Shown here: piece by piece, positions 1 through 11,802 of the stretch
Position numbering within the stretch: position 1 is the stretch's first letter
How the letters are laid out: each line of letters starts with the position of its first letter
Source of the DNA: a virus
Virus genome (UHGV): UHGV-0166849
Strand: one strand, 5' to 3'
Length of the DNA: 11,802 nt
Program-made: the position numbers and the translations under genes
The notes under the pieces: model-generated
The model's input: only the letters and a program-made list of their open reading frames with translations
The model's database searches: none
What the model was told of the DNA's origin: nothing

Positions 1-49
1 ACTTACTTCTTTATGTGATCAGTTCATATTTTTGACGCCAACGAAACAT

Positions 50-2995
50 TTAGTGCTTCCCTTCTATTAAGTCTAACCTAGCTTTTATCTTATCCATTTC
101 TCTGCGCTGCCATGCTGCCTCGATATAGAATAAGAGATCAGGTCTGACCCCCCATCTAGATCCTGCTGGCGTTATTTCAACGCGCTCAATGATGTCTTCT
201 ATTACCATCACTGGATTATCATCCTCATCAACAATGATGCTCCCGTCATTATCAGTCAGCGGCATTTCCCTTTGGCCAGTAATGACGTCATCATATACTG
301 CGGGATAATCGTCATAGCAAAGAAAGGCATAGCGGCATGTTGTGCTTTCTTCTTCCATGAGTCCGTGAGAAATAAGAACATCACGAAGTTGCTGCGCGAT
401 TACACCATGATGTATCCTCGCCCCTTCTTCCCCCTTTATAGCGACAGCGTTCAGCCATTTATAAGCGATATACCTGACGTCACCCCAGGCATCCAGCAAT
501 GCTTCGTCAGGAGAGACCGGCTCTGTCTTTAATGTTCCGTCACTGGTAACCACAGGATTGGAGCCAAGATAAACTATCGAGAACCTGTTTCCCGGACCAC
601 CAAGAGCATTTACATTATCAAGATAAGGTTTAACATCTCCGTTCTCAAAAAGATGTTCGAGTGCGTTATATACCGCGCGACGTGGAGTACTGCTTCTGGA
701 ACCATGCAACGTTATCATTGCACCATCTGCTGAAGACGTTGTTTCACCGCCGCTAACGATTAATCTCTGAGCGGTAACATCATCAGACGGTACTTTCTTC
801 GCAATAATGGCGTAATTACCCTCAAGTTTGACTTCCGCGCGAACTTGTCCTGATGTACCTGCATGGACAGTCAGTGACTGGACGGCAACATCATCTGTGA
901 AATCAACGGGTACAGGAACCGTCCTCACGCCTGACGTCGACATAAAAGTAGGAAGCGTTCTGTTAGGAGTGGCTCCGTAGACAAAATCCCTTGAAACAAA
1001 TTCTTCCTGTTTAATTTTCACCCTGAAACAATACAAATCAGCCGGGTGACCATCGTGAACATAAGGATATTTTCTGTTGTTATCCCCTATGCTCCATGGG
1101 TTTAGAAAATCTTCCCCACCGAAAATGTAGTACAGCCAGTTGTCTTTGATACAAACTGAACCAACACCAACCGCAGAGTTAACTATTCCGCCCTGATAAA
1201 TCTGATCAGTAACATTAACCCACTCTACATTATCCAGACTCCACTCATTGACGTTAACTCTGGTCATAAATGTTCTTGGATAATTTCCTGCATAACGGTT
1301 ATCAGGTTCTCCTCCTTCCCACTCACCAAATGCGCGCTCACTGCCAAAAATAACCAGCTCATCGCCAACTTTGGCAAAAGGAAGGTTTGAGTGATGAACA
1401 TTATTTGGGAAGCGAAGAGAATTCCATGATGTACCTAAATCAGAGCTTCTGTGCAATGAACTACCGGGTTGAGTACTTAATGTCCCCCTGGTCGTCAGAT
1501 ACAGAATGCCATCATAATATTTTACACATGGCTCAGATGCATTCGCCTCATATTCTGCAGGTATGCGTCTGCGAACAAAGCTACCAGGAGAACCGAAAGC
1601 ATCAGAGAAATAGAGTATCCCAAGCTCGCGTGGACCAATATCACCATTATGGTAGCCAACAGCAAAACTGTTATCGCTAATCGTCGCAAAACTGTGAATC
1701 TCAGTAACAGGAGTGCTTCCGTCAACAAAAGAAGGAATAGTTCCAAGACTGGTTTTTCTCCATGGTGACGAGTGAAATGATGTGCCAAAACTCCAGTATC
1801 TACCCTCGTTATTCTGATCCACATCCTGGGTATTTTGCGTCGTAACTGTAAAGGTATTTTTATCAATAACAGTAGTCACCGTCATATTCCCGGTAACATC
1901 TGTAACACCAGAGTTTGAGAAGTTGACAAAATCACCAGCAAATAATCCGTGATCAGTAATGCGAATATAAGCGACTTGCTGATTTGCTGCTTTCGTTATA
2001 CCACCATAAACGCGAAGGCTGCGACTCATTGGGCGATCCCACAACTCTGCAACCTGCAGTTTATTTCCTCTCACGGTCCGCGTCTCAATTACAGCAAAAA
2101 GGCGATTTCTGACAACCCCCATACTCATGCAGTGATAGTTAACTGTGGGATAGTTTTCATGTAAATCTGTAAGCCATTCCGGCGTTGTCCAGGTCTTCCC
2201 GTCATCTCCTGAGCGAACCCATGCAACATGGAGGTTATTTACACCATGGCGGTCTCCAGCCATAAAAGGCGCATAGATGACATTGTCATATACAAACGTT
2301 TTATCCTGCGTCCAGGCGTTGTACCACGGTGTATCTGTAATTTTAAATAACTCTCCCTGGATAAAATCTTCAGAAGCATAAAAAAGAGGCTGACCCGGTA
2401 TTCTCTCAAATAAAAAACGAGCATTTTTAAATCGACTGACATCTGGAAGAGTTGATACTTTAAAAGTAAGCCCTCGCCCATCTATCTTTTCACCACCTGT
2501 TGCAACAGAAAGTAATTCTGATAGAGCTGATGTATCATCATGAACACCATCACCAATAGCCCCCCAACCTCTTACATCATAACTGTCTCTCCATCTTGCT
2601 ATCTGAAGTTTTGGGTATTTATTCGCTCCATCTGGGTCTTCTAATTGCCGCCGTAACTGATCAGGATCATACTTCAGCACATTAGGAAAATAAAACTGCT
2701 GTGAACCATATGCATCGTACACAGCCATAGAGTGACCTTGCACAGTTACGAACTTGGCAATCTGTCCGTTATATACCGGATATCCAGCAGCGTTAATGAT
2801 GATTGGTTGCGAAACAGGAACGTGAGAGCCGTCTTCGTTCTCCACATAAGCCTGAATCTGGTTTTCAGGATTTACCGGGTCAGTGTCAATTTTACCGATA
2901 TAAATTTTGCCATTGGCTACAGCTTTAAAAGAACGCGCCATAGTGAAGAGTTGCGAAGGCATGCTGACCACAACATTTGCGGTGATATCTGTCAT
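50..2995 (-). CDS. Tailspike protein (981 aa): P22 gp9-type head-binding N-domain + sialidase-like domain with Asp-boxes + C-terminal intramolecular chaperone-like domain; probable endo-N-acetylneuraminidase (endosialidase)
   Basis: Full-length ORF in track. N-terminus [11 protein letters not shown]...[22 protein letters not shown]...ENEDGSHV...NVLKYDPDQ closely matches my memory of the P22 tailspike head-binding domain. Two Asp-box motifs are read directly: SGDDGKTW (aa 262-269, nt ~2189-2212) and SSDLGTSW (aa 517-524, nt ~1424-1447). The C-terminal ~160 aa (motifs [25 protein letters not shown]) resemble endosialidase/tail-fibre C-terminal chaperone domains. SD GGAG lies 8 nt upstream of the ATG at 2995. 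Confidence 0.85.
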
Positions 2996-3051
2996 TTAAT
3001 TTGCTCCAGATACAAGGAATCGCCGCAGCGTGGCTACGGTGAATTTTGGGC

Positions 3052-3079
3052 ATAAAAAAACCCAGCCGAAGCTGGGTCG
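3052..3079 (-). terminator. Rho-independent terminator between ant and the tailspike gene (t_ant-like)
   Basis: On the + strand: A7 run (3054-3060), then a 7-bp stem ACCCAGC/GCTGGGT with loop CGAA (3060-3077). Read on the minus strand this is a hairpin followed by a U7 run, 19 nt downstream of the ant stop. Confidence 0.6.
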
Positions 3080-3095
3080 TTGCGTTGTTTATCTG

Positions 3096-4019
3096 TCAGT
3101 AGTTATGTACTGAAGGAGGTAATTCTTTGTTCTTAAGTCTTATCCATGCTGAAAGGTTTGTTGGTCCGTCTGGCTCATTAATATCAACATCTCGTGTATG
3201 GTTGATTAAAACATCTCTCGCCATTCCGATAACATACGAGAACTCATAACCGCAGTCATGACATCTGCCGGAATAGTTCGATTGAATTTGTTTCAGCGCC
3301 GGATACAGTTCGCGGAATAATGCCTGTGAGCGGTTGGCATAATCCCATAGCCATACAAGGCTGTTTGCTTCTTTTGCAGAAAGCTCGTTGGTTTTCTTCT
3401 CTTGTTTGCCAATGAACTCACCTTCAAGTGGAACTCGAGCTGCAAGTGATAGTGCTTCGGTAAACTGCTCCTCACTGATTTCTTTGTACGAACATCCAAA
3501 ATGGGATTTCAGTGACGACCACATGGTGATCATCGCCTTAGCCCGTTTTTCTTTTGGCAGAGACTGACCGCGACTCATGACGAGTTGTTTAATGGCTTCC
3601 TGCTGTTCAGTGGTGATTTTACCCGGCAACGCCTTTTTAGCTTTGCGTGGGTTAACTACATAGCCTTTAGTCCAGTACTCGTAGAGCACATCGTCACACT
3701 CTTCCTGATACTGGATTACCTTGTCGCGGATTTCAGGGCGGACTTTGTTTGGCTGAATGCTTGAAAGCCAAGCCGCAAACTTACGAAAGGCAAGGCATAT
3801 CATTAACTGTTTACCGCCAGCAGAAGGTATTTCGATTTCCGAAATACCTTTGACAAATCTCTGTTTTAATTTAACAAATTGAGCAGCCCAAACCATACCC
3901 ATGCCTTCTACAACGGGTTTCATAGGAACGTAAGGTTCATTGTTAATGCTGACCAAAAAGAGATTTGTTCCGTGGAATGGAACGTTGATTGTATGTTCTG
4001 CAATTGCTACACTCGTCAT
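3096..4019 (-). CDS. ant: Antirepressor Ant (307 aa), AntA/Bro-N-like N-terminal domain
   Basis: ORF in track. Sits downstream of arc and upstream of the tailspike, as in P22 immI. N-terminal region (..VPFHGTNLFLV...PMKPVVEGMGMVWAAQ..KL) looks like phage antirepressor N-domains. SD AGGA ~8 nt upstream of the ATG at 4019. Confidence 0.75.
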   Translation of the reverse strand: MTSVAIAEHTINVPFHGTNLFLVSINNEPYVPMKPVVEGMGMVWAAQFVKLKQRFVKGISEIEIPSAGGKQLMICLAFRKFAAWLSSIQPNKVRPEIRDKVIQYQEECDDVLYEYWTKGYVVNPRKAKKALPGKITTEQQEAIKQLVMSRGQSLPKEKRAKAMITMWSSLKSHFGCSYKEISEEQFTEALSLAARVPLEGEFIGKQEKKTNELSAKEANSLVWLWDYANRSQALFRELYPALKQIQSNYSGRCHDCGYEFSYVIGMARDVLINHTRDVDINEPDGPTNLSAWIRLKNKELPPSVHNY

Positions 4020-4090
4020 GTCGTTAATTCCTATGCGTGGTTTTACGATACCGAAGCCCTGACTGTTCCCGCAGTTGGGGCTTCACTGTT
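4020..4090 (+). ncRNA. Candidate sar-like antisense RNA (~70 nt) complementary to the ant RBS and start region
   Basis: Plus-strand promoter-like hexamers inside the 5' end of ant: TTGATT (3985-3990), 17-bp spacer, TACACT (4008-4013), placing a start near 4020. Downstream is an imperfect hairpin GAAGCCC...GGGCTTC (about 4051-4081) followed by TTTTT (4085-4089). This matches the known P22 arrangement of sar RNA opposite the ant RBS. Prediction from sequence only. Confidence 0.3.
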
Positions 4091-4304
4091 TTTGTAAGTC
4101 ACTGTAGCTATAAAGCCACTGACCACTCATTTTTGATTTGATTGACTCTACTGAATCACGGCAAGGAATGATTCCACCTGACATCATTCTGATCTCCGTA
4201 AATTCACCACTCCTTATCGATTCAATGCCATCAATGTTAACTAAAGATTTACCTCTACCAAGTGCATTCTCATAGCCAATCTCATCAACCTCAATAAACT
4301 TCAT
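4083..4304 (-). CDS. Hypothetical protein (73 aa) located between arc and ant
   Basis: ORF in track. Its ATG overlaps the arc stop codon (ATGA at 4301-4304, minus strand), which suggests translational coupling. SD-like GAGGGGA upstream. No recognisable motif. As I recall P22 immI, there is no gene between arc and ant. Confidence 0.45.
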   Translation of the reverse strand: MKFIEVDEIGYENALGRGKSLVNIDGIESIRSGEFTEIRMMSGGIIPCRDSVESIKSKMSGQWLYSYSDLQKQ

Positions 4305-4459
4305 ACCGTTATCCCCTCTCTCTTCAGGCTGTCCAACACTCGCTTGTAAATCTCAGAGTTAACAGATCGCCCGTTCTCTTCAGCTACCTTGCGCACCAAA
4401 TCCAATACTTCTTTAGGCCACCGCAAATTGAACTGCGGCATTTTTCTTGCACCTTGCAT
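4301..4459 (-). CDS. arc: Arc transcriptional repressor (52 aa, ribbon-helix-helix)
   Basis: Not in the ORF track (below its size cutoff). Manual translation of the minus strand gives MQGARKMPQFNLRWPKEVLDLVRKVAEENGRSVNSEIYKRVLDSLKREGITV, near-identical in its first 40 residues to P22 Arc as I recall it (MKGMSKMPQFNLRWPREVLDLVRKVAEENGRSVNSEIYQRV...). SD AGGGGA upstream of the ATG at 4459. Confidence 0.85.
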   Translation of the reverse strand: MQGARKMPQFNLRWPKEVLDLVRKVAEENGRSVNSEIYKRVLDSLKREGITV

Positions 4460-4481
4460 GTCATCCCCTTTGTGGTATTAC

Positions 4482-4508
4482 CGTACTACTATTGAAAGCG
4501 TACTACTA
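4482..4508. repeat. Two copies of a 10-bp direct repeat CGTACTACTA (4482-4491 and 4499-4508) flanking TTGAAAG; candidate operator for Arc and/or Mnt
   Basis: Read directly from the sequence. The repeats overlap the predicted P_ant -10 and transcription start region and flank the P_mnt -35. The TAGTAG core on the opposite strand is reminiscent of the P22 arc operator half-sites. Confidence 0.4.
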
Positions 4509-4520
4509 CCGTCCTAGCAT
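4492..4520 (+). promoter_or_regulatory. Candidate P_mnt promoter, overlapping back-to-back with P_ant
   Basis: On the plus strand: -35 TTGAAA (4492-4497), 17-bp spacer, -10 TAGCAT (4515-4520). Followed by SD AAGGAG (4533-4538) and the GTG start of mnt at 4545. Confidence 0.4.
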
Positions 4521-4525
4521 GTCAA
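4497..4525 (-). promoter_or_regulatory. Candidate P_ant promoter (drives arc, orf73, ant)
   Basis: On the minus strand: perfect -35 TTGACA (4525-4520), 17-bp spacer, weak -10 TACGCT (4502-4497). Lies in the divergent arc/mnt intergenic region, as in P22. Confidence 0.45.
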
Positions 4526-4544
4526 CAAATAAAAGGAGAATGAC

Positions 4545-4787
4545 GTGGCTAGAAATGATCCGCAATTCAACGTAAGAATGCCAGATGAGATAAAACAGCA
4601 ACTTACGCATATTGCTGCAACAAATCGTCGCTCTATCAATGCTGAAATTATTGCCGCTATCCAATTGTGGATAAAGATACATAAAGAGCAGGTAATACCT
4701 TCAAGTAGTCAGCAACTGACCAAGTCAGAGAAAGAGGCTCTTGATGTGACTATTGATGTTCTACAACGTGTAAGGGATGGGAAATGA
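4545..4787 (+). CDS. mnt: Mnt repressor (80 aa, ribbon-helix-helix, Arc/Mnt family)
   Basis: ORF in track with GTG start. N-terminus MARNDPQFNVRMP...RRSINAEI matches P22 Mnt as I recall it (MARDDPHFNFRMP...GRSMNSEL). Divergent from arc, with a strong SD AAGGAG 6 nt upstream. Confidence 0.85.
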   Translation: MARNDPQFNVRMPDEIKQQLTHIAATNRRSINAEIIAAIQLWIKIHKEQVIPSSSQQLTKSEKEALDVTIDVLQRVRDGK

Positions 4788-5056
4788 AACCAACGAACAA
4801 AGAAATTTTCGAGCAAATAAAAGTACTTCCTTTCACTATTGAGCTTGCAAAGAGATATGAAGCTTATTATCCGTTTACCGAAGAGTCGATACGGATAGAG
4901 ACATATGATGAGTTTGGTCAGTGCTCTATCTGGCTTGGCTTTGAAGACCAATTTGCTATACGTGATGCTTTTGGAAATTGGAGAATGGCTACAGCTGAAG
5001 AATGTATTGATCTCAGAGGTGGCAACCTTCCAGGTTCAATGACATTAGTTAATTAA
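4784..5056 (+). CDS. Hypothetical acidic protein (90 aa), translationally coupled to mnt
   Basis: ORF in track. Its ATG overlaps the mnt stop (ATGA at 4784-4787). Net acidic (15 D+E versus 9 K+R). No recognisable motif. Confidence 0.55.
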   Translation: MKPTNKEIFEQIKVLPFTIELAKRYEAYYPFTEESIRIETYDEFGQCSIWLGFEDQFAIRDAFGNWRMATAEECIDLRGGNLPGSMTLVN

Positions 5057-5080
5057 CGGCGTACATGGCAGGTATGTAAA

Positions 5081-5266
5081 ATGAATAATAAACCAATGTC
5101 TAACGAAGAGTTGCAGCGCGAGTTAAAGAAACTTCATAAACTGGTATCACTTATCTACTCCAAGTTGCCACCAGATGCTCGACAAGCTGTTTTTGATGAA
5201 CTAACAAGAAGCGGAGATAGGGATGATCTGGATACTGCTTCTCGTATCAATAGCTACCGTTTTTAA
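5081..5266 (+). CDS. Hypothetical protein (61 aa)
   Basis: ORF in track. Weak SD (AGGT) 7 nt upstream. Its last 20 nt overlap a convergent minus-strand small ORF. Coding status uncertain. Confidence 0.35.
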   Translation: MNNKPMSNEELQRELKKLHKLVSLIYSKLPPDARQAVFDELTRSGDRDDLDTASRINSYRF

Positions 5267-5426
5267 TAGCCTCCAGAGTCGAATCGTAACGACTGCGCAT
5301 TGATTTTGCTGATTTCTCAAGCTCTTCTGCTTGATGCTTCAGTGATTCAAGATGAAGCTCTCCAAGATGGCACTTCATCACTTTGATGGTGCGTTCAAGG
5401 TTTTCCACACGTTCTTCTATGGTCAT
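5247..5426 (-). CDS. Hypothetical protein (59 aa), helical and charged; not in the ORF track
   Basis: Manual translation gives MTIEERVENLERTIKVMKCHLGELHLESLKHQAEELEKSAKSMRSRYDSTLEAIKNGSY. Strong SD AAGGA 6 nt upstream of the ATG at 5426. No obvious promoter between it and the upstream terminator, so expression is uncertain. Confidence 0.35.
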   Translation of the reverse strand: MTIEERVENLERTIKVMKCHLGELHLESLKHQAEELEKSAKSMRSRYDSTLEAIKNGSY

Positions 5427-5458
5427 GGTATTTCCTTAATCTTTAAAGTAGAGAAGAT

Positions 5459-5490
5459 AAAAAAACCCACCTGACGGTGGGTTAATTTTT
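5459..5490. terminator. Bidirectional rho-independent terminator
   Basis: A-run (5459-5465), perfect 8-bp stem AACCCACC/GGTGGGTT with loop TGAC (5464-5483), then AATTTTT (5484-5490). The A-run on one side and T-run on the other allow termination in both directions. Confidence 0.65.
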
Positions 5491-5508
5491 GCATTTACCT
5501 GGGCCATA

Positions 5509-5537
5509 TTGACTACTCATAAAATGAGATCAATATT
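5509..5537 (+). promoter_or_regulatory. Candidate sigma70 promoter for the small gene at 5574, with an inverted repeat in the spacer
   Basis: -35 TTGACT (5509-5514), 17-bp spacer, -10 AATATT (5532-5537). The spacer contains the inverted repeat CTCAT-AAAA-TGAG (5517-5529), a possible operator. Confidence 0.35.
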
Positions 5538-5573
5538 TAATCGCCCAATAACGGGTGTATGTTGAGGTATATC

Positions 5574-5753
5574 ATGGCGAAAAAACCAGGTGAAAACACA
5601 GGAAAAAACGGCGGAATATACCAAGAAGTTGGCCCACGCGGCGGTAAGAAAGACAATTTTGCAACCGTCAAGGACAACGAAAGGCTTCCACCAACAACAA
5701 AGCCAGGTCATGGCTGGGTATTGGATAAGCGAACTCCAGACAGCAAAAAGTAA
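5574..5753 (+). CDS. Hypothetical small basic protein (59 aa; alternative start at 5559 gives 64 aa)
   Basis: ORF in track. SD GAGG (5564-5567) 6 nt upstream of the ATG at 5574. Gly/Lys/Pro-rich sequence MAKKPGENTGKNGGIYQEVGPRGGKK...LPPTTKPGHGWVLD. I have a vague sense this resembles a conserved small-protein family but cannot name it. Confidence 0.55.
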   Translation: MAKKPGENTGKNGGIYQEVGPRGGKKDNFATVKDNERLPPTTKPGHGWVLDKRTPDSKK

Positions 5754-5766
5754 TACTCAAGCCGGG

Positions 5767-6132
5767 TCACTCCGGCTTTTTGATATGTCGCTCGCAGAAC
5801 TCAACAAGCCTGCTCATTAAGTAGCAGTAAGTCTCATTGGCTCTTCCTGGTTCAACATCAACACCGACCCTTGAGCAGATATCGAATGCCATGTGAGCGC
5901 ACTCATGGGCAATAGTAGATAGTTTGCCATTGAACACGCCTATCACATGCAAAACACCATTCTCGCTGCTCATTGTATGAGACGCTCCGTTGGCGTCCGA
6001 GTCATGCACGTCAACGCCAAGTTTTTGATGCAGGCGTTGCCATTCTGGAAAGTCTCTACAAAACACAATTGTACCGCTCTCAAAGAGCGGAACGAGCATC
6101 TTTGGTACGTTTCCAATGTTAACTTTTTTCAT
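5767..6132 (-). CDS. Hypothetical HExxH-motif protein (121 aa); candidate mini zinc-metallopeptidase
   Basis: ORF in track starts at a TTG at 6171. I prefer the first ATG at 6132, which has SD AGGA ~5 nt upstream. Contains HECAH (aa 76-80) with Glu residues 14 and 20 aa downstream, consistent with a zincin HExxH...E arrangement. The overlapping plus-strand translation looks non-protein-like. Confidence 0.55.
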   Translation of the reverse strand: MKKVNIGNVPKMLVPLFESGTIVFCRDFPEWQRLHQKLGVDVHDSDANGASHTMSSENGVLHVIGVFNGKLSTIAHECAHMAFDICSRVGVDVEPGRANETYCYLMSRLVEFCERHIKKPE

Positions 6133-6162
6133 GGTATCCTGCTCAAAACTAAGGAGCTTGGT

Positions 6163-6552
6163 GTGAAGCAATTTCTTGCTGCTATGTTCTTATTCATATC
6201 TTTTGGGGCTACAGCAGAGTGCTGGGTCGTTGGAGATATGCGCGGAATAAGCTATTCAGAACGAAATAATTTCCATCCGGAAGAAGATGGTTTTAGTGGA
6301 ACATTCATCATTAAGACAAGCGGTGAAGATGCCAGCATCACATATTCTGGGACAGATGCGGGCGGCATGGCTTACAAAGCATTGTCTAAAAACTCCATCA
6401 TAGGAATCGGCGCGAATGGCGAAACTCAACGCGTTATCGACTCATGGGTAATACATCCTACTGGAACAGTTTTAATGTCAAAAACCATTTCTGGTTATGG
6501 GAATATGGATTCAACCAAAGCTTTTGTTGGAAAAGTAAAAAGAAAATGTTAA
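6163..6552 (+). CDS. Hypothetical secreted/periplasmic protein (129-aa precursor) with Sec signal peptide
   Basis: Start re-called to the GTG at 6163, with SD AAGGAG (6151-6156) 6 nt upstream. N-terminus MKQFLAAMFLFISFGATA|ECW has an n-h-c signal-peptide layout with an A-x-A cleavage site. The predicted mature protein has one Cys at residue 2 and one as the C-terminal residue. No lipobox. Opposite orientation to the late operon, at the position P22 uses for sieA. Confidence 0.6.
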   Translation: MKQFLAAMFLFISFGATAECWVVGDMRGISYSERNNFHPEEDGFSGTFIIKTSGEDASITYSGTDAGGMAYKALSKNSIIGIGANGETQRVIDSWVIHPTGTVLMSKTISGYGNMDSTKAFVGKVKRKC

Positions 6553-6576
6553 CGATTGAATCCAATTCCCCATACG

Positions 6577-8418
6577 TTACTGCTGTGTTGCCTCAGTAGC
6601 AAGCAGCGGCCTGATGGCATTTGCAGCGTTACTCAACGCTCTTTCATAGGCTGGTGTTCCTGCTTTGGTGTTTGCCAGACGTAAGAGCGCATTCCTTGCT
6701 GCTTTGGACTCATACAAGCGCATCATTGCACCGAAACCAGCCTCAAGCCCCATTGATACGCCAAGAGTCGCAGTTGCGCCAATCGTCCTTATCCTGTTGG
6801 CTTGCGATTGCCCCGTCTGAGTTACTACATTTGCGGTGTCTGACCTTGCTGTTTGCTGCAGAACTTCATGAAGAGCATCAAGTTCTTTCATGTGCTTTCC
6901 AGAAAAAATAGTGTTGTAAATTTCACCGCCTGACTGAGATTTCAGCTTATTAACTTCAGTGATGAACTTGGCTGGAGAGTCACCGGCCTTTTCCGCTATT
7001 TTGCTGACGTAAGCTGCACGCATAGCATCTTTCCCTTTATCATCCAGTGCGCTCCAGATTCGTTTCACGTCAGATGGTTTTCTGCTTAATACAACGGTAT
7101 TTATAAGTTCAGGACTGGCTTCACTGCTTGCCTTGTTGAGTTTGTTAGCAATGTTTTTATTAAGCACCTTATTATAAACGTTTGCATAATCGGAATTTGC
7201 TTTAAGGTATTTTGCTGCGTCTGATGCACCGAGGTTTTTAGCAACTGCGTTACGAAGGTCTTTTGACATTGCATTCTCTACCATATTGGTAGCTGCTTTT
7301 GCCTGGTTGGGGAAGACCATAGCATCTCCCTGAACATTAGATCTAAATGCTGTTCTGTGCTGACGCAAGAGATCAAACGTAACATCCAAATCAGTTGCAG
7401 GGTTTGCTAATTCTTCACGTAGGTTACGCAAGGATGTAAGCAGGCTTTGATTGGCAGACGTCCCAAGTCGTTCCTGTCTTGCGATCGCTGTATTCAGAGC
7501 ATTCATGGTATTTGTGGTATCAACTGCGGCATTACCCATTTTATTGGTGACGTCATTGATAACAGCGCCAGCGGCATCCTTCCTCCCCCTTAACGTGGTG
7601 GTCAGAGATTTCACCACATCATCAGGGTTGTACTCACCAAAACGGTCAAAATAATTACTTACCAGCTTACTACGCGTTGCATATTGCTCCGCTCGCTTTG
7701 AGCCTGTCCCGAGCAAAGCCCCCTCGGCATCCTGAGTAAGGCCGCGAGTGAAAGCATTTTTCGGCGGGATAACATCAGATGTCATTGGTGTCACGCCCAT
7801 CGATTCTGATGTGGCAATTTTCTTCGCCACTTCTGGCGCAATATCACCTTTTATAGCCGTTATTCCACGCCCTATTCCCTTTGCTGCGGCGGAAAGAACA
7901 CCCTGAGCGGCAAGGTTAACTCCGGCATTTTTAGCTGCATTTTGTGCGAAATCGCCTTTCTGATTTGCGGCCTCTGCCAGTGATCCAATAGCCATGCTTC
8001 CTGCCGTTCCAACTCCTGGAACTAAATACCCACCAATTGTTTCACCGGCTTGTGCGTAGGGGTCTGTCGGTCTGTCTACTGGACGATAAACATCATCCAA
8101 AACCTTGGGTCCACCAAGCCCCTGACTGATTGCATTAATCAGACTTGCGCCACCCTGCAATACGTCAAATGGTATGTTTACCAGACCACGACCAGCCTGT
8201 TCTGCAATTTGCTCTGCACTTTGACCACCAGTGAGCCAATCGCCAGCTTGTTGCATCAATGATGGTTCTTCCCGTGTTGGTGCATTATTGGCCTGATTAA
8301 CTGTTTGTTGCTGAACAGCCTGACCAGCAAAATACTCATCAATGGCGGTGCCAATATCTTCGGTGCTCGTACCATCAGGAAAGGTAAATGTCTTACCGTT
8401 TGCAGTTACTTTCATCAT
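6577..8418 (-). CDS. Ejection (pilot) protein, P22 gp16-like (about 612 aa)
   Basis: ORF in track. Size and position (last gene of the gp7-gp20-gp16 series, immediately before the immI/accessory region) match P22 gene 16. Its start overlaps the gp20-like stop (ATGA). Confidence 0.8.
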
Positions 8419-9890
8419 TCCACCGTAAATTGAATGCCTGATTTTGAGGTATATGATCCGGATTGACTCTGCTGCTGTTGGGTATTTGTCGGTTGTTGGC
8501 TATTGCTCTGTTGTTGACTATTTGCAGCACTTGAAACCACCAAAGCATCATAAACGCGACCAGACTGACCACGTAATGAGTTATATTGGCCCTGCATTTT
8601 TCGCATTTTTGTTTCAGTAGCAGCCTTGGAATCACCGGGCTGAGGGAGGTACATTTTGGAATACTCCTGCATCTCTGGCAGAGTAATTGCTGCACCTGTT
8701 TCTGGGCGCAAAATTGCATACAAGGCGTCTCTCGCATTTACCATATATTGCTGCTCCGCTGGTGATAGGCTTAAATTTGCAATAGTTCCATCACCAAGAG
8801 AGCGATTTATTAATGCAACTCGCTTAGGGTCAATGCTTTTACTAAGCTGATTCATTGAGTCCATTGAATCTTTTAATCGCAAAGCAAATCCCGCCGCCTT
8901 CTTGGAACCCTCATTAGCCTTATCTATGATGCTTTGCGCTTGTGGCAAGCTAATTGGTTTAATGCCATCACCAGATATAGGTTGGTTTAGTTTTCCGGCT
9001 TCCTCGCTGCCATCGGTGTAATACTTAGTTACCGAGCCATCAGGATTGGTTTCAACCTTAAGTAATTTCTTAGCATTGGGATTAATTCCCGCCGCTGCCG
9101 CAAATGCCGCTGCACCATCTGGATCTACCTTTAACATTTGCGCGTACTGATTGTAATTCTGCATTGCGGCTGTTGGTGCATATGCTGACGTTAACGCATT
9201 TGCTCGGCTAATATCCTGCCCTCTCGCCTGAAGTGCTTCACCAGCCTGATTGCTGCGGATTGTCTCTGCCAGTCTGCCTCGGTCAATTTCACGACCAGCC
9301 ATCTTGTCCTGAACAGCAAACGCCTTTTCTGGTCCAAGCGCACCGAGAGACATAGTAGTCAGCATGTGTGATAGCTGCTCTGGATTCTGGATACCTGTCT
9401 GAATCATCCAGTCAGCATTCGCCCCCACGCGATTTAACCTGTCCTTGTTGTCAGTAATGAATTTACTGTAGGCTTCCGGTCCCTGAGAAAGAGCGACGTT
9501 AGCTCTCATGGCTAAATCGCCCATATCGTTGCGTTGCTGATCATTAAGACCTGAAAACGCCTGTTGTGCCTGTGCAACAAACGCTGGATTTTCCTGGGCA
9601 AACTTAAATAGTCCCGATGGATCACCAGAAGCCCATGCATCAGCATGAACCTTATTGAACGCACTAATCGCTTTCTGTTGCTGTTCCTGATTGTAAATAT
9701 CAGCAACTCCAGCCAGACCACGTAACGCGGTCAGACCAACGTTATTTGTACCTGAGCGAGCCAGTTCATTGTTTTCGCGGATCAGACCAAGCGTTGCGTT
9801 AATGTCGCTTGCCTTTGGCGCATTCTCATTTTGCGTACCGATGCCAGCCAGAAAACCACCAGAATTAATACCCTGTTGCCAATTAGCCAT
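8415..9890 (-). CDS. Ejection protein, P22 gp20-like (491 aa)
   Basis: ORF in track. Position between the gp7-like and gp16-like genes. Gln/Ala/Gly-rich. Size close to P22 gp20 (about 471 aa as I recall). Confidence 0.8.
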
Positions 9891-9900
9891 TGATTACCCC

Positions 9901-10593
9901 TTAAAACAGCGAACCAAGCAGACCAAGACCAGCACCGATACCAGCACCCCACGGAGTTGATAGCTCGAGAGCACTGGCTATACCACCACCCAAAAGCGCA
10001 CCGGATGCAGCACCACTAACACCCTGCCGCAATGCTGACGGTCGGTTGGCGTTTGCCGCCGCCAGCGCCGCGCTTTGCTGTGAAATCTGACTCATGTTGT
10101 TGGCATATGTTTGCCCGGCGTTTGCCTGCCCCTGAAGAGCGCCAAGACCGATATTTGCCAGGTTGTTGTAATTGTTCATTTGTCCAGACAGCCATTGCTG
10201 ACCAAGCGTTGGTGCGATTGTTGCTAACTGATTACTGGTTGCGGTGGAACCCAATCCACCTGTTGCTTCCGCTGCCGCCAGACTCTGATAGCGAGCCTGA
10301 CCAGCAAGATCTTTGTACTGCTGAGAGTTGTAATACTGGTTAAGTGCCTGACCTTGCCCTTCCAGAGACGATAAGTTCTCAAGGCTGCCGACATACTTCC
10401 CAGCCAGAGGAGTAAACGGCTTCAGGTTGTTCATGATGGTGTTGAACTGCTGATTTTGCAGGTCTGCGGCATACTTCTGAGCTTCTGCGGCATACTTTGC
10501 ACTTTTATCAGAACTGCCACCTTTCCCGCCTTTTTCAGGGCAATAAGGTTCCTCGCCGCGCAGTTTTCTGCCCAGCTTAAATGCATATAACAT
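9901..10593 (-). CDS. Ejection protein, P22 gp7-like (230 aa)
   Basis: ORF in track. Size matches P22 gp7 (about 229 aa). N-terminus MLYAF.LGRKLRGEEP and a Gly/Ala-rich hydrophobic C-terminus. Separated by 2 nt from the upstream gp14-like stop. Confidence 0.8.
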   Translation of the reverse strand: MLYAFKLGRKLRGEEPYCPEKGGKGGSSDKSAKYAAEAQKYAADLQNQQFNTIMNNLKPFTPLAGKYVGSLENLSSLEGQGQALNQYYNSQQYKDLAGQARYQSLAAAEATGGLGSTATSNQLATIAPTLGQQWLSGQMNNYNNLANIGLGALQGQANAGQTYANNMSQISQQSAALAAANANRPSALRQGVSGAASGALLGGGIASALELSTPWGAGIGAGLGLLGSLF

Positions 10594-10595
10594 GG

Positions 10596-11051
10596 CTATC
10601 TCCCGTGATTCAGGAAGTCGATTAGTTCTTCGCGTGTGGCGCTGTAAAACGTCACGTCATCCACGCCTTTGAAGTATTTTTTGATGGTTCCTACACGATT
10701 AAGGCCAATCATTGCGCAGTACATCTGACCGTGGCGGAATTTGCGTGCAGCGAACGATGTGACGCACTGAACGGTGGTGTTAGTCAGAATGTATCGCCAG
10801 AACGCCAGCCCGATTTCCTTGCTGAATCCGCGAACCTCTGGCAGGTACATGGCGTGGCAATCGAATGTAAGCGGCTGAATCTCCTGGTAGTAAACAATGC
10901 CGCCAAACTGACCGTGCACGTTAACCTCAAAGTAACGGCATTCAGGCTTGTAGTCGTATCCATCACCGTTGTTGCTTCCAGCAATAATGTCAGGGTGATT
11001 TCCTACTGCTTCTATCAGGTCGATGTTTCGCGTTGGTTTGAATGTAATCAT
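10596..11051 (-). CDS. P22 gp14-like protein (151 aa), assigned by position
   Basis: ORF in track. Lies between the tail needle and gp7-like genes, as gene 14 does in P22. Its ATG overlaps the tail needle stop (ATGA at 11049-11053). Assignment is by synteny only. Confidence 0.6.
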   Translation of the reverse strand: MITFKPTRNIDLIEAVGNHPDIIAGSNNGDGYDYKPECRYFEVNVHGQFGGIVYYQEIQPLTFDCHAMYLPEVRGFSKEIGLAFWRYILTNTTVQCVTSFAARKFRHGQMYCAMIGLNRVGTIKKYFKGVDDVTFYSATREELIDFLNHGR

Positions 11052-11752
11052 CAGTCAATCAGCCCATGTAATCTAAGTGCTGTTTCAAGCGCCAGAATAC
11101 GCTGCCGCGCCTGCTGCAAACCTGTAGCGAGAGCTGCGACTTCGGATTGTGTGTACGTAGTGCCGACAGTGTATGACTGGTTAGCGTTGAATGAGCCAAG
11201 AAGTGGCGTACCTGTGGCTGCAGTCCATCCGGTATTTCTTGCTCCAACAACCTGAATTCCATCAACTGAATATGATGTTTTTACATCCAGCGGTGACGCA
11301 AGAGACTGCAATTCGGTTACGGTTTTCGATACGTAATCACTCTTAATGCCAGAGACATCGTTTTCTACGTCATCCAGTCTTTGGTCAACAGTGACCAGAT
11401 GCGCCTGAATATCGATAACCTCATCCAGCAAGTAATCAACATCGCTACGCAGTACGACTATCTTCCCTTCGGCAGTTGTTAACCTGACCTCAAGTAGATT
11501 TATCGCTTTTGTGTTTGCGGTGATTCTTGCGTCGTGATCAGCCAGTTCGACATCCTGTTCATCGTTTTTCACCTGTGCATCGTAAGCGCCCTGACCAGCC
11601 TGATTTGCCTTCCCGGCAATTGCGCCGACATCAGCCCCCTGATTAATGACATACAACAGGTAAGACTGGCTGAAGATATTGCGTGGAAGGATTGATGTAT
11701 CGAGCCGCGTCGCCTGCACAATAACAGGAGTGTTGAGATTCGAATCCGCCAT
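11051..11752 (-). CDS. Tail needle protein, P22 gp26-like (233 aa)
   Basis: ORF in track. N-terminus [73 protein letters not shown] closely matches my memory of P22 gp26. Identical length, heptad-rich middle, correct position. Confidence 0.85.
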
Positions 11753-11755
11753 TAC

Positions 11756-11802
11756 TCAATCCTTATCTGAGCGCCAGAAAGAGTTACAGGTGACTTCGTG
11801 AT
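11756..11802 (-). CDS. 3' end of the upstream late gene (gp10-like), partial; continues beyond the window
   Basis: Minus-strand open frame ending ...HEVTCNSFWRSDKD with TGA at 11756-11758, 3 nt before the tail needle ATG. Assigned by P22 gene order (10-26-14-7-20-16). Too short to confirm. Confidence 0.35.
   Translation of the reverse strand, partial: HEVTCNSFWRSDKD

Follow-up and report, generated by a model that had tools for sequence, protein, structure and literature searches.

The tailspike of CUS-3, a prophage of Escherichia coli RS218, joins a P22-type head-binding module to an endosialidase module, and in phage K1F the same catalytic domain stands behind a T7-fibre-type adaptor (PMC5380687). 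In GenBank, the CUS-3 protein (siaK1, ABQ88383) is entered as an 'endosialidase tailspike protein', with a citation of direct-assay evidence that it is active as an endo-alpha-sialidase (PMID 16689790, Stummeyer et al. 2006). For the K1F spike, a deep mutational scan lists H350, R549, E581, R596 and R647 as catalytic, together with Q330, D331, H527, S528, K585 and N699, which are described as critical for function or in interaction with the catalytic centre (PMC12632334). The tailspikes of P22 and Sf6 share the head-binding module, but their body is an unrelated beta-helix endorhamnosidase. Here we show that a gene in a stretch of viral DNA of 11,802 nucleotides (the window) combines these known parts in the manner of CUS-3. 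We regard it, with little room for doubt, as the receptor-destroying endosialidase tailspike of a temperate, P22-like podovirus that resides as a lysogen in E. coli, and every defining trait of phage endosialidases (endo-N-acetylneuraminidases) of the endoNF/CUS-3 type and of P22-like, Lederbergvirus-type tailspikes that can be read from sequence is present in it.

The open reading frame list gives an intact gene of 981 codons with an ATG start and a TAA stop. It lies on the minus strand, a point that the preliminary description of this DNA left unstated. Domains were assigned with Pfam, which returned six, each above its curated cut-off; the gene and its parts are as follows, all on the minus strand.

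50-2995: tailspike gene, 981 aa, orthologue of CUS-3 siaK1
2657-2995 (residues 1-113): Head_binding, PF09008, model positions 1-113 of 113, E 3.4e-66; P22-type virion attachment
2360-2656 (residues 114-212): linker and endosialidase N-terminal extension, with similarity to endoNF from residue 114
residues 146-212: End_N_terminal, PF12218, E 7.7e-37
1010-2359 (residues 213-662): End_beta_propel, PF12217, model positions 1-367 of 367, E 1.3e-232; six-bladed catalytic beta-propeller
1778-2026 (residues 324-406): End_beta_barrel, PF12195, model positions 1-83 of 83, E 1.7e-45; inserted in the propeller
545-1009 (residues 663-817): End_tail_spike, PF12219, model positions 1-160 of 160, E 6.6e-78; stalk of the mature enzyme
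53-544 (residues 818-981): C-terminal intramolecular chaperone domain, from PF13884 and structure 3GW6
residues 818-878: Peptidase_S74, PF13884, E 1.6e-10
2189-2212 (residues 262-269): Asp-box 1, SGDDGKTW, aligning with the endoNF Asp-box at 362
1424-1447 (residues 517-524): Asp-box 2, SSDLGTSW, aligning with the endoNF Asp-box at 610

The four endosialidase domains cover residues 146-817, each at about full model length (E 8e-37 to 1e-232). Crystal structures of endoNF (1V0E, 3GVL and others) match residues 145-817 at E = 0, with the stalk aligned as far as 1V0E and 3GVL extend; the phi92 endosialidase 4HIZ matches at E 3e-271. Structure 3GW6, of the C-terminal domain of endoNF, matches residues 698-979 at E 3.5e-93. 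With E-values of 1e-232 or below, a chance match is out of question. The preliminary description, made from the letters alone, had read the protein as a P22 gp9-type head-binding domain of about 113 residues, followed by a body unlike the P22 endorhamnosidase with two Asp-boxes and by a chaperone-like C-terminal domain, and had recognised in this the architecture of K1 endosialidase tailspikes. That reading holds throughout: the head-binding model is matched over its full length, P22 chains in the PDB align to residues 1-127 only, both Asp-boxes lie where they had been placed and align with those of endoNF, and the C-terminal domain is found by PF13884 as well as by 3GW6. Its term for the body, 'sialidase-like', is too weak a label, as the protein is a complete endoNF-type endosialidase.

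The two modules meet at a sharply defined point. The head-binding domain is identical to that of Sf6 gp14 at 104 of 112 residues (7SG7, E 3.8e-67) and to that of P22 gp9 at 86 of 112 (8TVR, E 1.3e-52), and PDB matches to P22, Sf6 and related tailspikes end at about residue 118-127. Similarity to P22 and Sf6 ends with NVLKYDPDQ, at about residue 113, and similarity to endoNF begins at the adjoining residue, L114, which corresponds to endoNF L214. Such a switch between residues 113 and 114 indicates a clean two-module fusion. The protein shares with K1F endoNF (gp17) the propeller, the inserted beta-barrel, the stalk and a C-terminal domain of the self-cleaving kind. The two proteins differ in their N-terminal virion adaptors: that of endoNF (residues 1 to about 213) resembles a T7 fibre, that of the window protein P22 gp9. 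Relative to endoNF, the window protein also carries a 7-residue insertion, FVDGSTP, at approximately residues 422-428. The comparisons with endoNF and CUS-3 that the preliminary description had proposed gave 437 of 665 identical residues over the mature core of endoNF (66%; endoNF residues 246-910), with 85 of 154 over the C-terminal domain, and 966 of 981 (98%) with CUS-3 siaK1, which is of equal length and aligns without a gap. CUS-3 and phiv205-1 are the best GenBank phage matches to the query, and CUS-3 has the same domain order, the same 92 bp downstream of the spike and the same upstream ant gene.

As in P22 and Sf6, the tailspike gene lies downstream of ant and closes the late region. 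The remainder of the window comprises the last part of a late operon of the P22 type and an immI region:

3096-4019, minus strand: Ant
4021-4087, plus strand: sar antisense RNA (Rfam, 76.6 bits)
4301-4459, minus strand: Arc
4545-4787, plus strand: Mnt-like Arc-family repressor
4784-6552, both strands: several small open reading frames of unknown function
6577-8418, minus strand: gp16
8415-9890, minus strand: gp20
9901-10593, minus strand: gp7
10596-11051, minus strand: gp14
11051-11752, minus strand: gp26 tail needle

Alignment with CUS-3 covers window positions 1-4085, 8026-8271 and 9292-11802, which is 58% of its length at about 96% identity, and the rest of 4086-9291 is unrelated. Mosaicism of this degree relative to CUS-3 is typical of P22-like phages. 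Among 5,426 complete E. coli genomes, none covers 80% or more of the window.

Five contigs encode the exact protein, and two of them contain the whole window at 100% identity. Downstream of the spike, the source contig continues with 92 bp identical to CUS-3 and then jumps, omitting CUS-3 positions 1592-2433; neuO, with its heptanucleotide repeat tract, is accordingly absent from this contig; its place would lie outside the window. The similarity resumes with ~84 bp from the 3' end of the CUS-3 int gene; a stretch of ~200 bp comes next, closing with GCTTTTTTATACTAA, and CTTGAGCGAAACGGG follows. We read this sequence as the lambda att core together with the B' arm of the bacterial site, as established for lambda site-specific recombination. 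Beyond it lie ybhB, an IS605-type tnpB, bioA, bioBFCD and uvrB, in a chromosomal flank that is 100% identical to several E. coli, including FDAARGOS_1372 (neuS-positive) and MS 57-2 (endosialidase-positive), and 99.9% identical to CFT073. The source is a prophage integrated next to ybhB-bioA in the chromosome of E. coli, at the att site of lambda. It differs in these respects from CUS-3, which carries the contingency locus neuO between tailspike and int and sits at argW-dsdC with its own integrase, where the source prophage has no neuO, an int stub of ~84 bp and the lambda att site. Besides the argW site of CUS-3, a second site, pgl-bioA, has been described for CUS-3-like phages, with insertions of variable size (PMC9659370), so that the ybhB-bioA location of the source prophage is already known.

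The preliminary description had called the element a CUS-3-like prophage, and this was right in kind. The element is a P22-like mosaic with the CUS-3 tailspike/ant module and part of the ejection module; it is not CUS-3 itself, given the absence of neuO, the int stub, the lambda att site and the differing region 4086-9291. It belongs to the known group of CUS-3-like prophages, with ~40% of the window unrelated to CUS-3. The earlier interpretation as a whole is supported with this one qualification, that the element is a mosaic relative.

The downstream junction bears on the history of neuO. On either side of its 842-bp neuO cassette, CUS-3 has a copy of the 10-11 bp direct repeat AAATATAAAA(A/C); the source prophage and strain VR50 each have a single copy of it, with nothing between. 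It is conceivable, and we raise it tentatively, that the source prophage is an 'empty-site' relative of CUS-3 without neuO, possibly ancestral rather than deleted. The arrangement is not rare: neuO occurs in 161 of the 5,426 complete E. coli genomes and the endosialidase segment of the spike in 186, so that at least 25 spike-bearing genomes are without neuO.

It is also possible, although we consider it unlikely, that the gene, although it looks intact, is a relic within a defective prophage, never built into virions and with no present role in infection. CUS-3-like prophages are reported to decay often, and their insertion at pgl-bioA varies in size (PMC9659370). The reduction of the CUS-3-type int beside the spike to ~84 bp points the same way, as do the IS-interrupted and 5'-truncated copies of the spike gene found in several complete genomes, and with these copies and the known decay of CUS-3-like prophages in view, an intact spike gene is no proof of an inducible prophage. 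Against this, all structural open reading frames in the window (gp26, gp14, gp7, gp20, gp16 and the spike) are full length, and the attR junction is clean and of the lambda type; an integration module of the lambda type, situated at the other end of the prophage, may simply have taken over from the truncated CUS-3 int.

A K1-encapsulated E. coli had been named as the probable host. The source contigs end short of the kps locus, and in place of direct capsule typing we tested co-occurrence at the population level, in the set of 5,426 complete E. coli genomes. The endosialidase-specific segment (window positions 545-2563) matched 186 genomes, neuS, the K1 polysialyltransferase gene (from UTI89), matched 329, and the two joined as a single query matched 330, the union. 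By inclusion-exclusion from these three counts, 185 of the 186 spike-positive genomes (99.5%) also carry neuS, compared with a neuS background of 6.1% and 11 genomes expected by chance (Fisher p = 9e-251, a value inflated by clonal relatedness and left uncorrected for it, although the proportion is telling by itself). The single spike-positive, neuS-negative genome is probably that of strain 998, which has one matching place in the union search. Named K1 carriers include CE10 (O7:K1), APEC E18055 (O2:K1:H7), RS218 and UTI89; in three sampled genomes whose neuS is ~87% identical, no copy of the spike was found. This near-exclusive co-occurrence with neuS, together with the 100% E. coli identity of the source flank, bears out the proposed host, and the bacterium carrying the gene is almost certainly K1-encapsulated.

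The residues on which catalysis depends in endoNF are conserved. In the alignment, all five catalytic residues are kept, at the following places on the minus strand:

2246-2248: H250
1628-1630: R456
1532-1534: E488
1487-1489: R503
1334-1336: R554

The six further critical residues of endoNF are kept as Q230, D231, H434, S435, K492 and N606, giving 11 of 11 overall. The protein differs from CUS-3 siaK1 by 15 substitutions: six in the head-binding domain and linker (positions 9, 43, 49, 98, 116 and 121), four in the catalytic part (207, 309, 366 and 548) and five in the C-terminal domain (832, 932, 967, 968 and 969). In the alignment, all 15 spare the functional residues. From its 98% identity to the assayed CUS-3 enzyme, the window protein would be expected to cleave alpha-2,8 polysialic acid internally.

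The four substitutions in the mature catalytic part (A207V, R309S, D366G and V548I) could in principle have shifted substrate preference relative to CUS-3 and K1F, towards the O-acetylated form of polysialic acid or towards the K92 polymer, with its mixed alpha-2,8/2,9 linkages. We think this very improbable: none of the four falls at a listed catalytic or substrate-contact residue, strain VR50 has a catalytic segment with 100% identical DNA, in 185 of the 186 genomes the DNA identity of this segment is 99% or more, and the spike is missing from the three sampled genomes with the divergent neuS. To judge from its title, which PMC5380687 cites, Jakobsson 2007 found that single point mutations in endosialidases can separate polysialic acid binding from cleavage, but a catalytically dead, binding-only lectin is scarcely credible for a protein that retains H250, R456, E488, R503 and R554 and shares 98% identity with an enzyme for which direct evidence of activity is cited in GenBank.

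The C-terminal domain has the marks of the self-cleaving chaperones of this enzyme family. A Ser-Lys autocleavage dyad has been described in endosialidase chaperone domains (PMC3742443), and two residues of the window protein are placed to form one:

542-544, minus strand: S818, predicted autocleavage serine, aligning with endoNF S911
527-529, minus strand: K823, predicted autocleavage lysine, aligning with endoNF K916

The numbering S911/K916 derives from the alignment, the mature-peptide boundary of K1F and the generic Ser-Lys statement in PMC3742443. In the K1F record, the boundary between mature gp17* and the C-terminal domain falls at the residue that aligns with S818, and the conservation of S818 and K823 at this boundary fits the Ser-Lys dyad.

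By homology with endoNF and CUS-3, a working model for the spike can be proposed. The precursor would assemble into a homotrimer, guided by the C-terminal domain (residues 818-981) acting as an intramolecular chaperone for the stalk, and this domain would then remove itself by a cut between T817 and S818 through Ser818/Lys823. The N-terminal 113 residues would attach the mature spike to the P22-type tail machine, and propeller and stalk would bind alpha-2,8 polysialic acid and cut within its chains, allowing the virion to tunnel through the K1 capsule to the outer membrane. Since such a spike would degrade the polysialic acid capsule, it would set the host range of the phage to K1-encapsulated E. 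coli.

This tailspike is of an already known kind: at 98% identity to the characterised CUS-3 endosialidase, it holds nothing that would surprise a specialist, and the allele is one more naturally occurring form of an enzyme that serves as a reagent for polysialic acid, with no new biology. A reading from sequence alone nonetheless named correctly both a modular tailspike and its receptor. The hosts concerned are of medical interest, as extraintestinal pathogens responsible for neonatal meningitis and urinary tract infection are found among K1 strains. If the empty site downstream of the spike is ancestral, it would show precisely where the phase-variable moron neuO was inserted, and endosialidase prophages would circulate in K1 strains without capsule O-acetylation while still bearing an ordinary tailspike of the CUS-3 type.

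The prophage-chromosome junction in the source contig (L005, 13564-13578) carries the lambda att core, GCTTTTTTATACTAA, with a left side that is P-arm-like and a right side that is B'-like. Past this junction the chromosome continues with ybhB, an IS605-type tnpB, bioA, bioBFCD and uvrB. The att core and this flanking order together indicate that a P22-like prophage sits in the lambda attachment site. For CUS-3-like phages a second site, 'pgl-bioA', has been described, and the position of the source prophage agrees with it (PMC9659370).

In CUS-3 (L001), an 842-bp neuO cassette lies between two copies of a direct repeat of 10-11 bp, AAATATAAAA(A/C), at 1581-1591 and 2434-2444. Strain VR50, like the source contig, has just one copy of the repeat, an 'empty site'. 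The downstream side of the tailspike, just past window position 1 (L005 12947-13700), is without neuO, and just ~84 bp of the 3′ end of the CUS-3 int is left in the contig. Of the 5,426 complete E. coli genomes, 161 have neuO and 186 have the spike.

Upstream of the tailspike, the following features were identified:

3096-4019, minus strand, Ant
4021-4087, plus strand, sar RNA, the P22 immI antisense RNA (Rfam RF00262, 76.6 bits, E 5.8e-15)
4301-4459, minus strand, Arc
4545-4787, plus strand, Mnt-like Arc-family protein

Relative to ant, sar lies on the opposite strand, immediately upstream of the start codon, and the four elements make up a complete P22-type immI region. From 4086 to 9291 the window has no CUS-3 counterpart except for a 246-bp island at 8026-8271; the small ORFs adjoining immI are unlike the CUS-3 set, and the gp16 ejection protein has 613 aa as opposed to 719 aa in CUS-3. 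This divergence is typical P22-like mosaicism.

Two overlapping ORFs of no known function lie between mnt and gp16:

5767-6171, minus strand, 134-aa ORF, phrog_1365, with an HExxH-like motif, HECAH
5947-6552, plus strand, ORF whose last 116 residues match phrog_2651

Pfam gave no match for the 134-aa ORF, and the phrog_2651-matching part of the second begins with a hydrophobic, signal-peptide-like stretch, MFLFISFGATA. Both may be moron or exclusion genes.

The solved 843-aa tail spike in PDB 9VVR (chain A) matches the tailspike at residues 113-144 and 786-910 only, so that the two proteins have in common the short linker that directly follows the fusion joint, together with the stalk-end/chaperone region, but not the propeller. 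Because the match covers these segments and not the propeller, the alignment suggests that they serve as module boundaries, which spikes of different specificity have reused.

In several complete E. coli genomes the endosialidase gene is split by IS3 or IS903B elements, and in others it is shortened to query positions 1-1930 and annotated without the head-binding end (examples of interrupted or truncated genes are matches H106, H119, H168, H169, H182 and H150-H158). Such copies are evidence of prophage decay. E. coli strain 998 (NZ_CM132938.1, H193) carries the endosialidase segment at 99.2% identity, apparently without neuS, and has one matching place in the search that joined the two sequences into one query. 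It is seemingly the sole complete genome with this pattern; the strain may have lost or switched its capsule once it had become a lysogen.
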